A stretch of DNA of 64,000 nucleotides from an uncultured Dehalococcoidia bacterium (GTDB lineage Bacteria; Chloroflexota; Dehalococcoidia; UBA6926): NCBI GenBank assembly GCA_964405845.1, contig CAYOPL010000012.1, forward strand, positions 95,583 to 159,582. The letters run 5' to 3'. This document shows, piece by piece, positions 1-19,830 of this stretch (position 1 is the stretch's first letter; every line of letters begins with the position of its first letter). Under the pieces are notes generated by a model. It was not told the origin of the DNA. It was given only the letters and a program-made list of their open reading frames with translations, and made no database searches. The position numbers and the translations under genes were made by a program.

Positions 1-3000
1 TGCCGATAGCCCCTGCGCCAGGCGACGTGATTCTCCGCGTCCGGACGCAGCAGCTCATCAACAAGGTCGGCGCCCCGCGCGCCGTCATCATCGAGGTCGA
101 TCATTCTCGCCTGTAGAGCGGGGATTTCGCGGATCAGGGACTTGCCGAATCCCCACAAAGCCGCCCCAGCTGGTTCGATGAGCGGCTCTCGCCCGATGGA
201 CTGCGCCCCGCGCGTAATGATCCATGTGCCACTCGAAGGCGTCATGTCCGCGTCCAGCAGTCCTTGGATCATCGCAAGGGCGGAGCCGCCTGCCTGCCGA
301 ACATCCGCAGACATTTCGTCCGTCGTCGCGTCTGAACCGTGACCGCTCGCCGCAATGAGATGAACGACGCCCTGCAGCGGAACGTCATCCGACAATCCTT
401 CGAACAGCGCCTGCCACGCGCCACGCTCCGTCATATCAATGTCTGCGAGCGTGACGGTCTGATATCGTTCTGCCAGTTCGGTCGCCAACTCCTCGGCGAT
501 GCCGCTGTCATCTGCGGCAATGATCCACGCGCCGGGGCGTTCGGGTATGGTCGCGGGCGCTCGGGCGAGGAAAACGGAACGGTCGGGGGTTTCGGAAGAA
601 TCACCTGAACCGAGTCCGAGAACCTGAGGGTCTTCAAACCCGGTGTCCGTTAGCGCCTGCGTCCACACCTCTGGTCCGACGATTCCATGATTGGTTCGAT
701 ACTGATCGTCAAAGCGCCACCACCCCTCCAGCGCGCCAAACGTCACGTCCTGCCAACCCATCCCCTCAAGGGCCTCTAGCGCAACCAGGTGGCCGGATGG
801 TGCCAGGAGACTCATGCAGTTGCGCAGAGTCTCATTAAGGGAAATGGTGTCATGCAGGACATTTGCGGCGATGACCAAATCATATCCATGTGAGCTATAA
901 CCCTGTTCGACCGGGTCTTTTTCAATATCGAGGGGCCGGTAGTCTATCGCGCCGTCAGCAGTTCCGAACCGCGCCTCCGCTTCTGAGAAGAATCCGGCGG
1001 AAATGTCCGTATATACGTACTCGAAACGTCCGGCGGGAAGGATGGGCAAGATGGATGCTGTGCCTGAGCCTGTCCCTGCTCCCACCTCCACAATCCGGAG
1101 CGTTCGCCCCTCAGGCAGCTCCCCGATGAGTGCGGCAACGGCATCCCCTAGCATGGTATTGACGGCATGGGTTGCGGGGGCGGTGTTGAACAGGTCGCCG
1201 GGCGTCGGATAGCCGCTTCCAAACAGCACCGTTAGAGGGTCTGTCTCTCTTCGCAGGATGCCGGGCAGTTCTGCCGCCGTCCGCTGGCATAGCGCGATTT
1301 CAATCGATCCATGAGGATAGCGCTCCAGCATGTCCGCGGCGAACGCGTTGGGATCAAAGGGCAAGTCTGCCGGCAGCGGGTCATCTGGTCCGACCAAAAC
1401 TCGAAAGCCGTCCGCTGTTTCCTGCATGACGCCCGCGCGCGCAAGAAGTTCAAAAACGCGCCTCAACAGCCTGGCGCGGTCGCCCGTGATATCCAGATCC
1501 GCGCTCAACGTCTCCGGGTCAATTACGCTTTCTGCGGCGTAGTGGCAGCCGAGATTACGGATCGCAGTCAGCGCGAACGAGTACGAAAGCCGTTCAAGAT
1601 CGGCCAAAAGACTTACGCGCTCGTCCCAATCCACACCTTCCCGCGAGAGATACTCTCTGAACGTCGGCGTAGCGGACTGAATCGTGGAAGGCTCCGCGAG
1701 GAAATCTGCGGGCTGCAATGGGAACAGGGGCCGGTCGCCCCAAACGATGTCGTAGAGCAGGTTTGACAAGCCCTCGTCCGCTGAGAATAGAGCCTCGCGA
1801 GTGGCTCGCTTGATCGTCAAGCCAATGATTCCGCCAAGCGGTTGACCATCGGGGCTGTAGATGGTCACGTCCATGGCGAATACCTCGGGCGCGCCGCGTC
1901 GGCTGTCCGTTGCGGCGTCCGAGGCTCTTTCGCGCATGGTGGCGTGGCAAAGGACGCGGGACGGCAACGGGCCGCTCATCCACAGTCGCTCCCACGCAAA
2001 GGGCAAGTACGTGGCCGTTCCGACGGAGTCGTCATCTATCCGTGCGGCGGATGCGACTTGCACACAGCCATCAAGGAGAATCGGATGGAAATCGAGCCCT
2101 TTCCGGACCAGTTCGTCAGGAAGAGCGACCTCTCCAAGAGACGCCCCGTTTCCTGCCCACAGTCCCGTTATGACTTGGAACAAAGGACCGAAATCGATTC
2201 GTATGTCTGCCTTGGAGCGATAGAATTCCGCAATGTCGATTTCACGCAGACCGTCGCGTACCTCGTCCGGTGATATGGCCGTCACCCCCTCCGGCAGACC
2301 ACGTTGCTCAAGCGCCGATCCCTTGGCGTGGAGCGTCCAGTCATTCTCGGCATCGGACGTGCTGTAGATTTCAAAACCGCGACCGTCCGGACCGTTCTCG
2401 GAATCCATGATCACCTGAACGGAGCGTTCAATGGACTCGGGCGCGTCGCCGTCTTGAGCATCGGCAAAGACCATCGCGGTCTGTATCTGCGTATCGTCGA
2501 GGGCCACAACCCCGTCGTGATCCGCGCGCGCGGCCGTCAAGGCTAATGCGGCGTACATCGCGCCCGGCGCGATGACCCGCCCAAAGACGCGATGGTCGCT
2601 CAGCCACGCAGGCTCGGAGGATGACGGACGGCTTTCAAAAGTCACCTCTCCACGTGGGGACTCATGGCGAATTCCCAGTAGCGGATGTCCCGCAATCGCT
2701 GTCGAGCGGGCGGACGTGTCAATCCAGTGGCGATACCGCTGGAAGGGATAGCCGGGAGCTATAACCCGTCGGCGCGACTCCCCCGCGAAGAGGCCGGTGA
2801 AATCGATAGGGATGCCGGTGTTATAGGCATTTGATACGGCGGTCACAAAGCCGCGGGTAAGGTCTATCGGCGGCTCTGTTTCATCGTGATGAGGTCTTTC
2901 CAGGCTCGAAAACATCGGCGGGTCCTTGACCGGCGCGCCTTGCGGCCAAAGCAGGGTAATCATGGGGCTCAGGGTTGTAGCCGGACCCAATTCAATGACA

Positions 3001-5519
3001 CAGTCCACGCCCAATTCGGCCAGGGACTCCATGGAGTTTCGGAAAAGAACCCTCTGCCGTGAATGGCGAATCCAGTAGTCGGAATCGATCTGAACATCCT
3101 CCTCAAGAGGCTTTCCGGTAAAGTCGCATATAAGCGTGACCTTGGGCCTTTGCGGTTCACGGATGATGTCGGAAGCTACGCTCTTCAGTTGGTCCAGTAC
3201 CGGCTCCAACATTGCGCTGTGAAATGCCGCGCTCGGTGGCAGAAGCCTGACGCGAATCTCCTGCTCCTCGAACTTCTGGGCAACAGCGTTTACGTCCCCG
3301 GCGGGGCCGCTGATCACTTGGTTGATGCCGTGGTCGAGGCCTATGCAGAGGCGATCGTCGCCTGAAACAGCATGCTGCTCTTCAATCGCTTCCTGTATGG
3401 CGTCTTGCGGCGCGAAGATAGCCGCCATCGCGGCGCCCTCTGCCATCGGGCTCATGATTGTTCCGCGCGCAGTGACTAGGCGCATACCCTCTTCAAGTGA
3501 GTAAACGCCGGCAGCTTGCGCGGCGGCAAACTCGCCGAGGCTGTGTCCCGCGACGACGGACGGTGTAACACCAGCGCTTTCCCATAGGGCAGTCAGCATG
3601 CACTCAACTGCGTACGTTGCAGGCTGCGCCCAGGCCGAGTCATCAAGGTCGCCTGAGCGCCCAAACATGACATCAAGCAACGATTCGCCTCGTGCGTTCT
3701 GTACAACCGCTTCACAACGATCGAGGACTTCTCGCGCTACTGGCTCGGTCTCATAGAGCGTCTGAGCCATGCCCGGCCACTGGCTGCCCTGTCCTGTATA
3801 GACAAAAGCAATCTTTGAGGGAGCCGTTGTCGGGTTCTGGGAACCGTTCTCCGCTATACGGGCAAGGCCCTCTCGCAGCGAATCGACATCCTTATACACA
3901 ACACCCGAGCGATAGCGGAAATGGCTCCGTCCGATGCTCGTCGTCCACGTCAGGTCTGACAGGGCGGGGTCGGACGCGAGAGTATCCGGAGATGGCCCGC
4001 CGGACGTCTCACTTAGTCGGTCAAGATAGTGCCCCGCAAGTTCCCGCAGAGCCTCCGGTGATCTGGCAGATAGCGGCAAAAGTCGCGTTTGGCGTGGCGT
4101 GACCCCATCAGAGTCACCAGAACTGAGGGATTCCACTTCCTTGGGCGCGCCCAGAGGCCACATGGTTGTCCCGGTTGACAGAGACGGCGTAGCAGGCGCG
4201 CCGTAGCCTTCGATGACGACGTGGGCATTCGTGCCGGACCATCCGAATCCGCTGACGGCGGCTCGCGGCGGTCTGCCATCCACGTGCGGCCACTCCATCG
4301 CCTCGGTCGGCACGCGCAGATTGGCCGTCTCCCAGTCGATTGACGTGCTGGGATTCTCGAAGTTGAGGTGCTTGGGGATGATGCCGCGCCGCATGCCCAG
4401 CACAACCTTCATGATTCCTGCAACGCCTGACGCAGGCTCGAGGTGCCCAAAGTTCGTCTTGACGGATCCGATAATCATCGGTTGATCTGCCGGTCGTCTG
4501 CTGCCGTACGCGGCCGCCGCGGCTTGCAGTTCAGGGGGGTCGCCAACCGGGGTCGCGGTTCCGTGCGCTTCCAGATAATCCACGTCCATGGCGGTAAGCC
4601 CGGCTGAGGCCAGCGCATCGCGAATAACGTTTTCCTGCGCGGAAGCGCTCGGCACAGTCAAACCTTGGCTTGCGCCGTCTTGGTTGATTGCAGAGCCGCG
4701 AATAACACCCCAGATGCGGTCGCCGTCCCGTTCGGCATCGCTCAGGCGCTTGAGCACGATGATTCCGCAACCCTCGCCGCGGAGATAGCCGTCCGCCGCC
4801 TCGTCGAACGTGCGGCATATACCGTTGGGTGAGAGCATTCCCGCCTGTCTTCGCAGGAACATAACCCTGCCGGAGAGCATCGCGTTGACGCCTCCGGCCA
4901 AGGCAAGATCCGACTCTCCGCGTTGAAGGCCGGCAATCGCCTGGTGCGTGGCGACGAGGGACGATGAGCATGCTGTGTCGATAGCAATGGCAGGCCCCTC
5001 AAGGCCAAGCGTGTAGGAAACACGCCCGATAGCGGTATTAAGGGTGCTCCCGCTGGCCGCATAGAGACTGGTGGCGGGATCATCCAGTTCAATTGACGCG
5101 ACGGCCGAGTACCTGTACTCGTTGTTGGCAATGCCGCCATAGACGCCTGTGCGGGTTCCCTTGAGGCTATCCGGGTCGATCCCCGCGTCTTCAAGGGCGC
5201 GCCAACTCGTTTCCAGCATGAGCCGCTGCTGCGGGTCCAGCAGCTGCGCTTCTATCGGCGCAATTCGGAAGAACTCAGCGTCGAACTTGTCGATATCGTC
5301 GATGAAGGCCCCATAGTGCGTGACGTCGCTCTGTGTGGAGGGCATCTCAAGGAACTCGCCCATCCGGCCCGGCCCTTCACCGATTATTCCCTCTGTTCGT
5401 ACCATGGTGCCGGAGGCCAGCAGCCGCCAATAGGCATCGTAGCCGTCAGCACCGGGAAATCGGCACGCCATACCGATGATGGCGATGGGTTCGTCCGTAT
5501 GGGAGTTATTTCCTGCCAT
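1..5519 (-). CDS. Modular type I polyketide synthase, N-terminal part. The order is KS - AT - DH - C-methyltransferase - start of KR, and the gene continues beyond the window start (C-terminus off the edge).
   Basis: Reverse-strand translation from the ATG at 5519 gives [23 protein letters not shown]... The KS active site [12 protein letters not shown] has its D codon at 4977-4979. The AT motif GHSLGE is at about 3531-3548. A DH HPLLG-type region lies at about 2650-2700. The SAM-binding motif [13 protein letters not shown] of a cMT is at about 1080-1100. All checkpoints share one frame (codon top coordinate = 2 mod 3). The ORF is absent from the track because it is edge-truncated. Confidence 0.9.
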
Positions 5520-5657: not shown

Positions 5658-7310
5658 ATGTCAATCGTTCAAACGGCACTCGATAAACTTCCAGTTCGAC
5701 CCTCGTACAGCTGGGGCCAACTGCGCGGTGACGTTTTCGGCGGGCTAACCGCGGGCAGCATCGTCCTGCCCGCCTCCATCGGCTATGGTCTGATTTCCGG
5801 TCTGGGTGCCGTCGCCGGGCTCTATGGAGCTGTGGCGGTTAGCCTCTTTGGCGCGCTCTTTGGCGGCACCCGGGGGATGATCTCCGGCCCGAATATTCTC
5901 GTTACCCTGACGATGGCCGCCGTCGTCTCCCAATACGCCAACAGCCTTGCCGAGGCCGCAACGGCAGCCATTCTTGCCGGTCTGATTCAGATGGGCTTTG
6001 GCGCTCTACGGCTTGGGCGCTATGTCTCCTATATTCCGTATTCCCTGATTGCCGGGTTCTTCACGGCCTTTGGCATCCTTTTGATCATCAAACAAGGACT
6101 GCTTGCCTTCGGTGCATCCGCGGGCGGTACTGCGCTCGACAGCATCCGTGCATTTCCTGATGCGGCGCGAGACGCCAACCTGGAGGCCCTCGCGGTCGCG
6201 ATTTTCTGTGTTGCGTTGGGAGTGGCGTGGCGTGGAAGACTCTTGAAGATTGCCCCGTCTCAATTTGCCGTACTCGTCTGCGGGACAGTCGTGGGCGTTT
6301 TGTTCTTTGCAGGGGCGCCGACTATCGGGGCTATCCCACAAGGGCTGCCCGCGCTGGAACTGCCCCCCTTCTCACTTGATTTGGTAATCCGGCTTCTACA
6401 GCCCGCCTTTGCGATGGCTCTGTTGAGTTCTCTGGCGACACTCATCGTCGCTCTTCCCCTGGATACGATCACAGGTACCCAGCACAAGCCCAATCAGGAA
6501 TTGGGAGCGCAGGGCATCGGCAACGTGGCCGCCGGCCTCATCGGTGGCCTGCCCGGCGGCGTAACCCCCGGCACCTTCGTCAACGTGTTCAGCGGAGGAC
6601 GCACACAGGTGGCGGGATTGACCGTTTCCGCCCTTATCATCTCGGTCATCCTCTTCCTTGGCCCGATAGCAGAGCGCATTCCCTTGGCGGTCCTCGCAGG
6701 CATCCTGGCCATCAACGGCTGGAACGTCATAGATTGGCGGTTCGTCAAACGCCTGCATCGCGTGCCTGCCGACTACACAATCGTGATGCTCCTCACGTGT
6801 TCTCTCGTGCTGTTTGTGGACATCACTCTTGCGGTGGTAGCCGGTGTCGTCGTCTCCGCGATGACCGGCGCGAGACGGCGCGAGAAAATGGAAACCGAAA
6901 CGCTCATCTCCGCCCCTATTCTTGACAGCGTGTTCCTTGAGGACGATGAGGCAGACCCTTTCGAGGCGCGTGCGGGCATCGTTATTTTCCCTGATCGCGT
7001 CACGGTGGCCTCAACCCGTGAGGTGAGCCGCATCGTCCGTTCGGACATCCTCGGGCATCAGGTCGTCATCTTTGACATGTCCCGCACCTTCTTCATCGAC
7101 GATTCCGCTGCGGTGGCCATAGCGGACCTCATCAGGATCGCCGCTGTTCGCCGCCCGGGCCGCCTTGTCATCGCAGGACTGACAAGACCGGTCACGGAAA
7201 CTCTTGACGCCTTCGGTCTACGTGCCGCCTTGCCGGAAGGATTGATTGTTCCGGACATGGACACCGCAAGAGCCCGCGTACGCGACTTACTGGCCACCCG
7301 TTCACCCTGA
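5658..7310 (+). CDS. SulP family anion (sulfate/bicarbonate) transporter with a C-terminal STAS domain.
   Basis: MSIVQTALDKLPVRPSYSWGQLRGDVFGGLTAGSIVLPASIGYG... is a SulP signature, with multiple TM segments. The C-terminal STAS region reads VIFDMSRTFFIDDSAAVAIADL. The start was refined to the ATG at 5658, since the track ORF from 5316 overlaps the PKS start. The stop TGA lies inside the REP-like repeat. Confidence 0.85.
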   Translation: MSIVQTALDKLPVRPSYSWGQLRGDVFGGLTAGSIVLPASIGYGLISGLGAVAGLYGAVAVSLFGALFGGTRGMISGPNILVTLTMAAVVSQYANSLAEAATAAILAGLIQMGFGALRLGRYVSYIPYSLIAGFFTAFGILLIIKQGLLAFGASAGGTALDSIRAFPDAARDANLEALAVAIFCVALGVAWRGRLLKIAPSQFAVLVCGTVVGVLFFAGAPTIGAIPQGLPALELPPFSLDLVIRLLQPAFAMALLSSLATLIVALPLDTITGTQHKPNQELGAQGIGNVAAGLIGGLPGGVTPGTFVNVFSGGRTQVAGLTVSALIISVILFLGPIAERIPLAVLAGILAINGWNVIDWRFVKRLHRVPADYTIVMLLTCSLVLFVDITLAVVAGVVVSAMTGARRREKMETETLISAPILDSVFLEDDEADPFEARAGIVIFPDRVTVASTREVSRIVRSDILGHQVVIFDMSRTFFIDDSAAVAIADLIRIAAVRRPGRLVIAGLTRPVTETLDAFGLRAALPEGLIVPDMDTARARVRDLLATRSP

Positions 7311-7451: not shown

Positions 7452-8618
7452 CTACCCCCAGACGTTCTGAGCGGTCTCCGCGACAACCCGCAGCTTCGCG
7501 TTCTGCTCGTCGATACTGAGGCGATTGCCAACGATGGACGTGCCGAACCCGCATTGCGGGCTAATGGCCAACTGCTCGCGCGGGAAGTGATGAGCCGCCT
7601 CGGCGATTCTGCCTGCAAGCTCTGAAGGCGTCTCGGCGCGCGGTGTCTTTGTCGTAACTAATCCCAGCGCCACCGTCTTGTCGTCTGGCACGCCGCGCAA
7701 AGGTTCGAATGAGCCTGAGCGCTCATCGTCGTACTCCAGCATGAGCCGATCCGCGTTGACGCGCTGAAGCACCGGCTCGACAATCCGGTCGTAACCGCCT
7801 TCGGCCAGCCAACGGCTGCCCTGATTGCCTCGTCAAAGATGGAACGCGAACGTCACATCCGTGAAGCCGTCCATCACCGCGTTGTCCAGCTCAATCCCTT
7901 GCGTGATCCAGTCCTCTCCGGTCCGACCCTGGGACTCGTAGAACGCTGCCCATGTCGGATCGAGGATAAGAGGGTAGTGCGGGGCGTCGAGCTGGATATA
8001 CGTTGCGCCGAGCCTAATTAGCTCTTCGATCTCCTCGCGGATGATCTGTGCGACGTCACTCAGAAACGCATCAAGCGTGGGGTAAGCCTCAATAGACTTA
8101 CTCGGCGACCAGAAATTAGCGAATAGGCTGGGACTCGGCAGGGTCACCTTCAGCATGCGCGTCGTGCGGCCCCGGAGATACGTAAACTCTTCTGCCGACA
8201 GGTGACGCTTGCGCCGCAGCTTGCCGACGACACCGAGCGTCGCTGGCCGCTCCTTGGGGGCGTTCCCCACCCGCTCATCGCCACGCCAATCACCCCAGAG
8301 AAACGCGTCAATATCGAACTCACCGAATCCTTCCACCGCCTCGGGCATCTGGCTTTGGAAAGACAACCGCCGCATCTCGCCGTCCGTGAGAACCTGTAAC
8401 CCGGCGTCCTCTTGCGCCGCAACCGCGCCATCAACCGCGGCGTCCTCGATGCGCTTGAACTCTGAAGGCGTGATTCGTCCGGCCGCAACGTCCTCGCGTG
8501 CAGCGAGCAACTCCGGCGGCCTGATCAGGCTCCCAACCACGTCGGCATGCGGCAAATTCGGCATGCTGCGGAGTGTTGCATATCGCCGGGGCTTGGGCAA
8601 GCGATTGATGGTAGTCAT
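7452..8618 (-). CDS. Protein of the MetE C-terminal-domain family (cobalamin-independent methionine synthase / homocysteine methyltransferase-like, Zn-dependent). A single in-frame TGA at 7833-7835 interrupts the frame; it is either a candidate selenocysteine codon or a nonsense mutation.
   Basis: Track ORFs 7833..8681(-) and 7452..7772(-) are in the same frame (8681-7772=909). The translation ...IQLDAPHYPL...DVTFAFHL-TGA-RGNQGSRWLAEGGYDRIVEPVLQRVNADRLMLEYDDE...LAISPQCGFGTS matches MetE C-domain motifs: IQIDE, the H-x-C Zn site, the Glu ligand, and NPDCGL. The LPHADVVGSLIRP segment near the N-terminus resembles the MetE LPTTTIGSFPR motif. The start is uncertain; ATGs at 8618 and 8564 are both possible. 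Confidence 0.7.
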
Positions 8619-8630
8619 TCCAGATAAAAG

Positions 8631-8674
8631 TTGCATGCACAATAAATGTGTCTGATAATAATTGTTATATGCAA
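8631..8674. promoter_or_regulatory. AT-rich imperfect palindrome TTGCATGCACAAT-N17-ATTGTTATATGCAA in the divergent intergenic region between the MetE-like gene and marR. It is a candidate MarR operator or shared promoter region.
   Basis: This is a low-GC island in a GC-rich genome. Inverted half-sites can be read directly. It lies about 85 bp upstream of the MarR start at 8760. Confidence 0.35.
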
Positions 8675-8759
8675 ATAACAAGGACCGTCTGAAATCTCGG
8701 CTGCTTGGGCGCAGCGTACATGCTCTATACTGACCTCAAATCACCATGGCGATATACGA

Positions 8760-9304: not shown

Positions 9305-10144
9305 TTACGAAAACGGCTTGTTGGCAATCGCCTCACCGTATCCGACGGCAAGCAGCGCGCCGGGATCCCTCCGCCACTTCTCATAAGCGACGGCTATGTC
9401 ATCGGCGAGTTTCCTGGTGGCCACTCCGTAGCCAATCGCCTGCTCTCTGAGGCTCGGCGACAGGAACCAGCCGTAGACCAGGCGATGGATAAACTCGATT
9501 TCCTCGACCGAGTCGAATATGTCGAACGTCGCATTCATTCTAATGTTGGCAAATCCTGCCTTGAGAAGCTGGCCCTTTAGTTCCTTGCCCATCTGCGGAT
9601 GAGCATCGTCAGTCGCCAAAATGTCTTCGAACATATCCCATGCTTTCCTGAGAATGCCGAAGTCGGGCTCGGTGAAGCTGGACTCGCAGATCATCTCGCG
9701 GCAACCGATGATGCCGCCGGGTTTCAGGACTCGCATCACCTCTGTCAGCACGGCTTCCGTGTCCGGAACGTGCATCAGCACATTGTGGCAGTGGGCGACG
9801 TCGAAGTAGTCGTCCTCAAACGGAAGGTCCGATACGTCGGCAACCTGGAATATCGTGTTTGTCTGACCGCCTGCCTCCGCCACGGATCGCGCCAGGTCGA
9901 TCTGGGATTCCTCCATGTCGACGCCGTGCAGCTCCCCCGGTGAGACAGCCTGTGCCAGGCCAACTGATATGGTGCCGGGTCCGCAGCCGAAATCCAGAAC
10001 GCGAAGCCCCGGCCTCAGATAGGGAAGCAGATAGGCGGCGTTCTTCTGTGCGGTGAACCGCCGCATAGTCTCAACAAACTCATGGCCGAAGCCCATCGTG
10101 TAGTCGGGGGTTGAAGATGTGCGCTCAGTCATAGTGTCATTCAT
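9305..10144 (-). CDS. Class I SAM-dependent methyltransferase (Methyltransf_11/25 type).
   Basis: The motif I sequence VLDFGCGPGTIS is present, followed by HGVDMEE, the acidic FDVAHCHNVLMHVPD, and the post-II LKPGG. Confidence 0.8.
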   Translation of the reverse strand: MNDTMTERTSSTPDYTMGFGHEFVETMRRFTAQKNAAYLLPYLRPGLRVLDFGCGPGTISVGLAQAVSPGELHGVDMEESQIDLARSVAEAGGQTNTIFQVADVSDLPFEDDYFDVAHCHNVLMHVPDTEAVLTEVMRVLKPGGIIGCREMICESSFTEPDFGILRKAWDMFEDILATDDAHPQMGKELKGQLLKAGFANIRMNATFDIFDSVEEIEFIHRLVYGWFLSPSLREQAIGYGVATRKLADDIAVAYEKWRRDPGALLAVGYGEAIANKPFS

Positions 10145-19535: not shown

Positions 19536-19712
19536 CCGGCGAACAATAAAACCTCGTTGTTCCTGCACCTTTCCCGGCTGGATGACTCAGACCAAAACTA
19601 CGACTAACTTCCGGCCGATAGTGATGTAGTAGCCGCTATTGACGCAGTAAAGGTAAAGGCGACCTGACCCGAAAGGCTGGCGTAACCAACCCAGCCCAAT
19701 TACAGCAAAAAA

Positions 19713-19784
19713 TACCCCTGCCGGGACTCGAACCCGGGCCACCAGCTCCGGAGGCTGGTGCTCTATCCGCTGAGCTACAGGGGC
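19713..19784 (-). tRNA. tRNA-Arg (anticodon CCG).
   Basis: The reverse complement GCCCCTGTAGCTCAGCGGATAGAGCACCAGCCTCCGGAGCTGGTGGCCCGGGTTCGAGTCCCGGCAGGGGTA folds as a cloverleaf. The anticodon loop CUCCGGA carries the anticodon CCG, and the T-loop reads GGTTCGAGTCC. CCA is not encoded. Confidence 0.9.
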
Positions 19785-19830
19785 ATGATTACGCCTTGCG
19801 GCGCCCCACCATCATACCCCGCTCAGTTGG

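Follow-up and report, generated by a model that had tools for sequence, protein, structure and literature searches.

An in-frame UGA at a predicted zinc-ligand codon of a MetE-type methyltransferase gene from a Dehalococcoidia bacterium, probably read as selenocysteine

Zinc-activated alkylation of thiols has its textbook example in the MetE-type enzymes, and MetE is sensitive to oxidation. The zinc ligands of the Escherichia coli enzyme are His641, Cys643, Glu665 and Cys726. A shorter, single-domain relative is represented by PDB entry 1YPX, a Listeria 'vitamin-B12 independent methionine synthase family protein'; to our knowledge, no biochemical function has been established for this '1YPX / methionine synthase II' subfamily of about 370 amino acids (aa). 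A gene of this type was analysed in a stretch of 64,000 nucleotides (nt) from an uncultured Dehalococcoidia bacterium (assembly GCA_964405845.1, contig CAYOPL010000012.1, positions 95,583 to 159,582), referred to as the window. The gene is interrupted by a single TGA at the codon of the first zinc-ligand cysteine. That it is a genuine selenoprotein gene, with the UGA read as selenocysteine (Sec), was given a probability of about 0.88.

The reading frame lies on the minus strand and runs from an ATG at 8564, or alternatively from an upstream ATG at 8618 (388 aa), to a TAG at 7452-7454, with the TGA at 7833-7835 as its sole internal stop. When compared with the homologues of about 370 aa, the probable start was one of these two ATG codons (370 or 388 aa) and not the TTG at 8681. 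The minus-strand DNA around the codon reads TTC GCG TTC CAT CTT TGA CGA GGC AAT CAG GGC AGC CGT TGG CTG GCC, translated as FAFHL-TGA-RGNQGSRWLA. A sequence-only reading of the window had joined the two open reading frames (ORFs) listed at 7833..8681(-) and 7452..7772(-) into one gene, and this was correct: they share a frame, and the TGA is the only stop that separates them.

The joined protein matched Pfam PF01717 (Meth_synt_2) above the curated threshold (72.8 bits, cutoff 21; residues 27-361 of 388) and is 66-94% identical to its homologues of about 370 aa. The best solved relative in HMMER alignments was 1YPX (E=8e-49, residues 24-388). In NCBIfam the nearest models were PRK06520 and PRK06233, yet both scored under their curated cutoffs (236 against 313 and 214 against 576), and the equivalog cutoffs of PRK04326 (107 against 406), PRK09121 (57 against 392) and TIGR01371 (50.8 against 930) were likewise not reached. 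For this reason the product is called a MetE-type zinc methyltransferase here and not a methionine synthase; judged by these scores, it appears to be a relative of the Meth_synt_2 family that is the equivalog of no named enzyme. No selenoprotein-specific model in NCBIfam 20.0 matched the protein.

In the HMMER alignments to 1YPX ('mHiCRGN') and to Candida albicans MetE ('HFCYS'), the TGA falls on the cysteine of the His-x-Cys motif, the equivalent of E. coli Cys643, exactly as had been proposed from the sequence. The downstream Glu (MLEYDDE) and Cys (SPQCGF) that had been named as further ligands are in frame, conserved, and aligned with the other ligands of MetE. Aligned to MetE and 1YPX, the zinc tetrad His-x-Cys...Glu...Cys is thus complete as His242, U244 in place of Cys, Glu277 and Cys338 (Table 1). 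The Cys338 codon lies 3' of the UGA and is therefore translated only when the UGA is decoded. From the alignment it is likely that zinc would be bound through selenium at a site made of His242, Sec244 and Cys338 together with Glu277.

Table 1. Positions of the MetE-type gene, its predicted zinc-site codons and the hairpin downstream of the UGA (window coordinates; residues in the numbering of the 370-aa protein).
Feature	Position	Strand	Basis
MetE-type coding sequence, single-domain ('cobalamin-independent methionine synthase II' family), 370 aa including Sec244	7452..8564	-	PF01717, 1YPX, homologues
In-frame UGA, taken to be read as selenocysteine Sec244; first Cys zinc-ligand position	7833..7835	-	Alignment and orthologue codons
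His242 codon CAT, His of the His-x-Sec motif	7839..7841	-	Invariant in 21-sequence alignment
Glu277 codon GAG in MLEYDDE, predicted third zinc ligand	7734..7736	-	Aligns with the ligand-Glu region of MetE; invariant in 21-sequence alignment
Cys338 codon TGC in SPQCGF, predicted fourth zinc ligand	7551..7553	-	Aligns with MetE 'PDCGL'; invariant in 21-sequence alignment
Bacterial SECIS-like hairpin GGGCAGCC-GUU-GGCUGGCC, triloop GUU at 7811-7813	7803..7821	-	Fold and comparative data
11-nt spacer CGAGGCAAUCA between UGA and hairpin, encoding R-G-N-(Q)	7822..7832	-	Sequence

Orthologues were compared at the DNA level, using the best 80 loci among the species representatives of GTDB (one genome per species), from which the codon was read directly. 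The codon at the Sec244 column was TGA in 38 of the 80 loci, TGC in 31 and TGT in 11, and no other codon occurred, so that the Cys/TGA column expected earlier is indeed conserved. Forms with TGA are called Sec forms below and those with TGC or TGT Cys forms. Every TGA form has a single in-frame stop in 365 codons: the stretch from the HADVVGS anchor to the TGA is 238 codons long, and the 126 codons that follow close with VWG. The carriers in this set were mostly sponge and marine metagenome-assembled genomes (MAGs) labelled 'Dehalococcoidia' or 'Chloroflexota', and also Caldilineaceae, Anaerolineae, Poribacteria, Acidobacteria and Vicinamibacteria; the 38 species representatives with TGA span Dehalococcoidia, other Chloroflexota, Poribacteria and Acidobacteriota. 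A DNA pattern scan of metagenome contigs from the Joint Genome Institute (JGI) gave at least 120 further TGA forms. The scan pattern, in which the second loop base was left free, matches 40/40 of the Sec forms already known; a version with TGY matches 43/43 Cys forms. Among the matches listed, the 3' part is complete in 106 TGA contigs, and in 97 of these the frame stays open for 126-129 codons after the TGA.

This recurrence bears directly on whether the TGA is a plain nonsense mutation, the mark of a pseudogene, or a sequencing or assembly error restricted to this one genome, a possibility which the sequence-only reading had kept in view and which now appears very improbable. At the protein level the data seem to favour it: the closest match (P0001, 92% identical) has TGC, a single C-to-A change away from the TGA of the window, and its DNA (locus L001, 92% aa identity) carries the TGC at the same place. 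The best 120 matches in the protein database are full-length (about 370 aa), and the nearest 20, when aligned, all have Cys at the column. This Cys-only picture is an artefact of gene calling, because gene callers stop at the TGA and split the TGA forms; in the Logan contig L002 the gene is called in two pieces of 267 aa and 96 aa. L002, an independent Logan assembly of run SRR16090826, matches the window at 100% identity over 1401 bp, TGA included; it and the window may have been built from one set of reads. The same TGA stands without any other lesion in the 38 orthologues and in the metagenome contigs, and 9 of the 12 nearest relatives of the window share it.

Substitution rates on both sides of the TGA were estimated from 555 Sec-Sec pairs (synonymous divergence, dS, about 0.9). 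The ratio of nonsynonymous to synonymous rates (dN/dS) was 0.116 as a ratio of means and 0.113 as a median upstream of the TGA, and 0.16 and 0.15, respectively, downstream of it. For the window against nine Sec relatives, the downstream dN/dS was 0.04-0.09 at dS 0.7-1.0. These low downstream values indicate purifying selection, so the region past the TGA is translated and constrained. A pseudogene is effectively refuted, since the TGA is not private to one lineage and there are no further stops or frameshifts and no relaxed selection.

Sec and Cys forms interleave on a neighbour-joining tree, on which parsimony requires a minimum of 14 switches. The window belongs to a clade with ten TGA forms; three Cys forms, L001, L006 and L008, are grouped in a small subclade within it. 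As it is nested in this TGA clade, the TGC of the nearest protein match is less likely to be ancestral than to have arisen by reversion. The gene ends in TGA in 9/39 Sec forms versus 27/43 Cys forms (Fisher p=4e-4, computed with kinship ignored) and in 39/106 metagenome Sec forms among the matches listed, and TGA also closes nine further window ORFs of 250 aa or more. Since TGA is an ordinary stop both in the window ORFs and in the genes of Sec forms, the recoding is local and the genetic code is unchanged.

The same alignments speak to a split gene, in which a 243-residue N-terminal protein and a C-terminal part of 106-126 residues, made from an internal start, would assemble together. A GTG-initiated ORF (7452..7772) does exist 3' of the TGA, and gene callers annotate two pieces. 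The 20 codons from the TGA to this GTG are nevertheless in frame and equally conserved (R-G-N-Q-G-S-R-W-L-A-E-G-G-Y), a break precisely at the ligand codon would remove a zinc ligand, and the TGA is always at the Cys codon and nowhere else, which makes this the least probable of the explanations considered.

A selenocysteine reading calls for a bacterial selenocysteine insertion sequence (bSECIS) downstream of the UGA. The consensus bSECIS model of Zhang and Gladyshev, as summarised in PMC13188914, has an apical loop of 3-9 nt that begins with G followed by G or U, a stem of 4-16 bp, a distance of 16-37 nt from the UGA to the loop, and a minimum free energy (MFE) of -7.5 kcal/mol or lower. The window hairpin lies within all of these limits: the loop is GUU, the stem has eight positions with one G.G mismatch (5+2 bp around the mismatch), the apical loop is 19 nt from the UGA, and the MFE is -11.1 kcal/mol. 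The stem-loop that had been noticed in the sequence about 11 nt past the UGA, at 7803-7821, is present, with a spacer of 11 nt.

The fold is also conserved, as the sequence-only reading had supposed, and specifically in the TGA forms. The core stem and a G[G/U]U loop were intact in 37/39 Sec forms versus 12/43 Cys forms (Fisher p=1.6e-10, again with kinship ignored). A G[G/U]U loop was present in 159/159 Sec forms (39 plus the 120 metagenome matches listed, all 120 of which have GGU or GUU) versus 18/43 Cys forms. The MFE was -7.5 kcal/mol or lower in 87% of the GTDB Sec forms and in 90% of the metagenome Sec forms among the matches listed. Only in Sec forms are the synonymous sites +17 and +20 fixed, as C in 39/39; at +23, which is both the third base of the Arg codon and the second loop base, Sec forms carry only U or G, and Cys forms have C in 22/43 and A in 3/43. 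Of the Cys forms, the 12 with an intact hairpin are for the most part those closest to Sec forms on the tree, and none of the Cys sister lineages has a better hairpin than its Sec sister.

Pairing was evaluated across 138 distinct Sec sequences, in which 87.5% of the cells of the 8-pair stem were paired, compared with 20-70% when the partner strand was slid. Exchanges of C-G to A-U (at one pair) and to G-U preserve pairing, and the covariation score was 0.142 versus 0.119 in shuffles, with 0/500 shuffles reaching it. In soil variants the G.G mismatch is replaced by a G-U or A-U pair. Metagenome variants of the type GGGCGGCC-GGU-GGCUCGCC have Gly for Ser (GGRW), often with Leu CUC followed by GCC, and can also pair in another register, which has 7 base pairs and a bulged U. 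This register is reminiscent of the E. coli fdhF SECIS, which has a bulged U.

Several results weigh against selenocysteine as the residue inserted, or against the hairpin as a SECIS element. The covariation is modest, with 16 cells changed on both sides versus 6.2 in shuffles, and RNAalifold alone gives just 3 pairs at -1.15 kcal/mol, coding constraints limiting the variation; because of this RNAalifold result, the covariation is rated as supportive and not decisive. The single-sequence fold is unexceptional (z = -0.78 versus shuffles, 71 nt), and it is the comparative data that place the hairpin beyond chance. The hairpin is a short one, whose bases are mostly set by the conserved peptide Q-G-S-R-W-L-A. 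An Rfam search found no SECIS or other family at the site. The tRNA scan of the 64-kb window gave only tRNA-Arg and no tRNA-Sec, and no tRNA-Sec was found in the flanks of the 38 Sec-form loci. A search of the 64 kb for a second selenoprotein gene, using TGA-joined ORFs, codon-position GC and CxxU-type motifs, gave none; the candidates it raised resemble antisense frames or adjacent genes, and none was convincing. The Sec machinery is the weak point of the selenoprotein reading.

When SelA, SelB and SelD of E. coli were used as tblastn queries against 1.2 Mb of locus DNA, a single match was obtained, a selD in locus L068, which is the Poribacteria chromosome OZ244587.1 and itself a TGA form. 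This selD (6151-7095, +; TIGR00476, 375 bits versus a cutoff of 125) lies 2 kb downstream of the MetE-type gene and has an in-frame TGA of its own at the position of E. coli Cys17 (KTCG-TGA-AAKVSP), and it would thus encode a Sec-containing SelD. The Cys17 position of SelD is a known Sec/Cys site. In most database relatives of the L068 SelD the called gene lacks about 10-20% at the N-terminus, which fits truncation of the gene calls by a TGA.

It is in this setting that decoding of the UGA as something other than Sec has to be considered, either by near-cognate Trp or Cys read-through or by Cys insertion via tRNA(Sec) under selenium scarcity, the hairpin then acting as a read-through stimulator only. 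Misinsertion of Cys at Sec-UGA codons is known from some systems, and the data support recoding of the UGA well without fixing the residue inserted; that no tRNA-Sec was seen in the 64-kb window or in the locus flanks is on this side too. We consider such decoding unlikely. Cys codons are the only alternatives to this TGA, and the position is that of a metal-ligand Cys, as in the classic Cys/Sec pair; Trp is unable to act as a zinc ligand. The downstream element fits the SelB-type bSECIS model in its spacing and its G[G/U] loop, and one carrier, L068, has a Sec-type selD. The carriers also belong to groups reported to use Sec (PMC13326102, PMC5649159): SelA and SelB are reported to be enriched in sponge symbionts and to co-occur in most symbiont bins of various phyla (Slaby et al. 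2017, PMC5649159), and Dehalococcoidia MAGs with 46-49 selenoprotein genes are listed in the main text of BSepDB (PMC13326102).

Selenocysteine rather than decay, the central proposal of the sequence-only reading, is thus supported by the recurrent TGA/TGY alternation, the intact frames, the purifying selection and the TGA-specific hairpin. The remaining doubt concerns the inserted residue and the Sec machinery, not the decoding of the UGA.

In the mechanism we propose, the UGA at 7833-7835 would be recoded to selenocysteine by the standard bacterial route. The hairpin 11 nt past it, with its apical loop G-U-U, would act as the SECIS element and in this organism presumably recruit SelB carrying Sec-tRNA(Sec), upon which the ribosome would proceed for 126 codons to complete the full 370-aa barrel. 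Sec would replace the first Cys of the His-x-Cys...Glu...Cys zinc site. By homology to MetE, the catalytic Zn2+ would be held by His242, Sec244 and Cys338, with Glu277 as an exchangeable fourth ligand, and may activate a thiol (most likely that of homocysteine) or a selenol for methyl transfer.

The neighbours of the gene are alike in the window and L001: a MarR regulator, a UbiE/ArsM-like S-adenosylmethionine (SAM) methyltransferase and a SulP permease. An adjoining SAM-consuming methyltransferase fits a possible role in homocysteine remethylation. This methyltransferase (window 9305-10144, -) had its best scores, all below cutoff, on the arsenite methyltransferase model NF008823 (76.6 bits) and on several NCBIfam methyltransferase selenoprotein models; it is without an in-frame TGA.

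Elsewhere, in three Sec-form loci, the context is a gene cluster of the selenoneine/ergothioneine type. Read in the orientation of the gene, L099 (945-6748) and L143 (2447-8216) carry egtD, the MetE-type gene with Sec, senA and a betaine-type ABC transporter, in which egtD was identified by TIGR03438 (381 bits) and senA by NF041186 (522 bits). L068 (196-7095) carries a betaine-type ABC transporter, the MetE-type gene with Sec, senA (526 bits) and selD. No senB was seen in the stretches of L099, L143 and L068. Because the MetE-type gene lies between egtD and senA, and once beside a Sec-containing selD, the substrate might be a selenol or thiol other than homocysteine: the enzyme might methylate or demethylate compounds of the selenoneine or ergothioneine type, or a betaine-type methyl donor might be used. 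The setting in such a cluster would be compatible with a role on seleno- or thio-histidine compounds.

Flanking genes were counted in the metagenome loci with Sec forms (L083-L202). Among the matches listed, a convergent TauE/SafE-family membrane protein lies downstream in 47 loci, a small PEMT/ICMT-like methyltransferase downstream on the same strand in 31, an isochorismatase-family protein upstream in 17, and a UbiD-like protein occurs in 16.

A tRNA-Arg(CCG) is present near the gene in the window (19712-19785, -) and in two related Sec-form loci (L004:219-293 and L011:2812-2885), a hint that synteny is to some extent conserved within this Dehalococcoidia clade. At the start of the window (1-5519, -) lie polyketide synthase (PKS) genes whose proteins are about 79-81% identical to, and syntenic with, two PKS genes of L001. 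Both are in frame -3, and neither aligned stretch contains a stop (a junction of about 87 nt between the two lies outside these stretches). No ORF is listed in this region, and the open frame therefore presumably runs off the window start. That window 1-5316 is pseudogenised was considered and rejected, as the PKS genes appear intact and their ORF presumably leaves the window start. The SulP gene probably begins later than listed, at about 5652, because the listed ORF start at 5316 overlaps the PKS start.

The supposition that MetE-type selenoproteins are not a standard annotated family was borne out for the 2026 review, the main text of BSepDB, deep-Sep, GOS and NCBIfam. No MetE-, methionine-synthase-, homocysteine- or PF01717-type selenoprotein is named in the table of the 2026 review (PMC13188914), which gives families with Pfam or NCBIfam models and includes the selenoprotein families of two Haft papers. 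None of the MetE type is named in the main text of BSepDB (PMC13326102), in deep-Sep, in the GOS selenoproteome or in the Olavius symbiont paper, and full-text literature searches returned no report of a MetE or core-MetE with Sec. MetE-type selenoproteins are a family new to the published lists compared, and the recoding mechanism is canonical; what is unusual, as predicted from the alignments, is that an alkyl-transfer enzyme has Sec as a zinc ligand. A broader claim is tentative and was put at somewhat less than an even chance: that this is the first natural enzyme family with a catalytic zinc on a selenolate (His/Sec/Cys plus Glu) in a MetE-type methyltransferase, and that it is widespread among the symbionts of sponges and in soils, with many Cys/Sec switches, and possibly tied to selenium or thiol-histidine metabolism.

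A Sec-for-Cys swap at a zinc ligand, made about 14 times on the tree, is a natural experiment on selenium at a non-redox metal site, and could inform on Lewis acidity, ligand exchange and resistance to oxidation. Since gene callers split the gene, annotations of many Dehalococcoidia, Poribacteria and soil MAGs omit the enzyme or describe it wrongly, which affects the metabolic reconstruction of their methionine and methyl cycling. The family also strengthens the evidence for heavy selenium investment by sponge symbionts and some soil bacteria.

Among known systems, the closest is the Cys-type 'cobalamin-independent methionine synthase II family' (1YPX, P0001), with which the window protein has in common a single Meth_synt_2 domain of about 370 aa, the H-x-C...E...C tetrad and the flanking motif FHL[C/U][RK]GNQGSRWL; it differs from this family in having Sec (UGA) for Cys and a maintained hairpin past the codon. 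The canonical two-domain E. coli MetE and core-MetE/MesB (PMC7005905) have a homologous catalytic domain, with a zinc site that activates the homocysteine thiol; in contrast to canonical MetE, the window protein is without the N-terminal Meth_synt_1 domain, consistent with its 50.8 bits on TIGR01371 against the cutoff of 930. The E. coli fdhF-type SECIS is, like the window hairpin, a stem-loop inside the coding sequence right after the UGA, with a small loop of G followed by U or G. The spacing of the minimal fdhF element is 11 nt, equal to the spacer in the window. The two are unrelated in sequence, and the window hairpin, a candidate SelB site, has a triloop on an 8-position stem with a G.G mismatch. 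The same Cys/Sec pairing at a catalytic or metal position is known from [NiFeSe] hydrogenase and formate dehydrogenase FdhA, in which Sec is a metal ligand. Neither an H-x-U motif nor a MetE-type fold occurs in any of the families tabulated in PMC13188914. The alkyl-transfer selenoproteins described there, arsenite methyltransferase and methylated-DNA-protein-cysteine methyltransferase, likewise have Cys and Sec forms that coexist across lineages; the window protein differs from them in being, as predicted, a (beta/alpha)8 thiol methyltransferase with a non-redox Zn2+.

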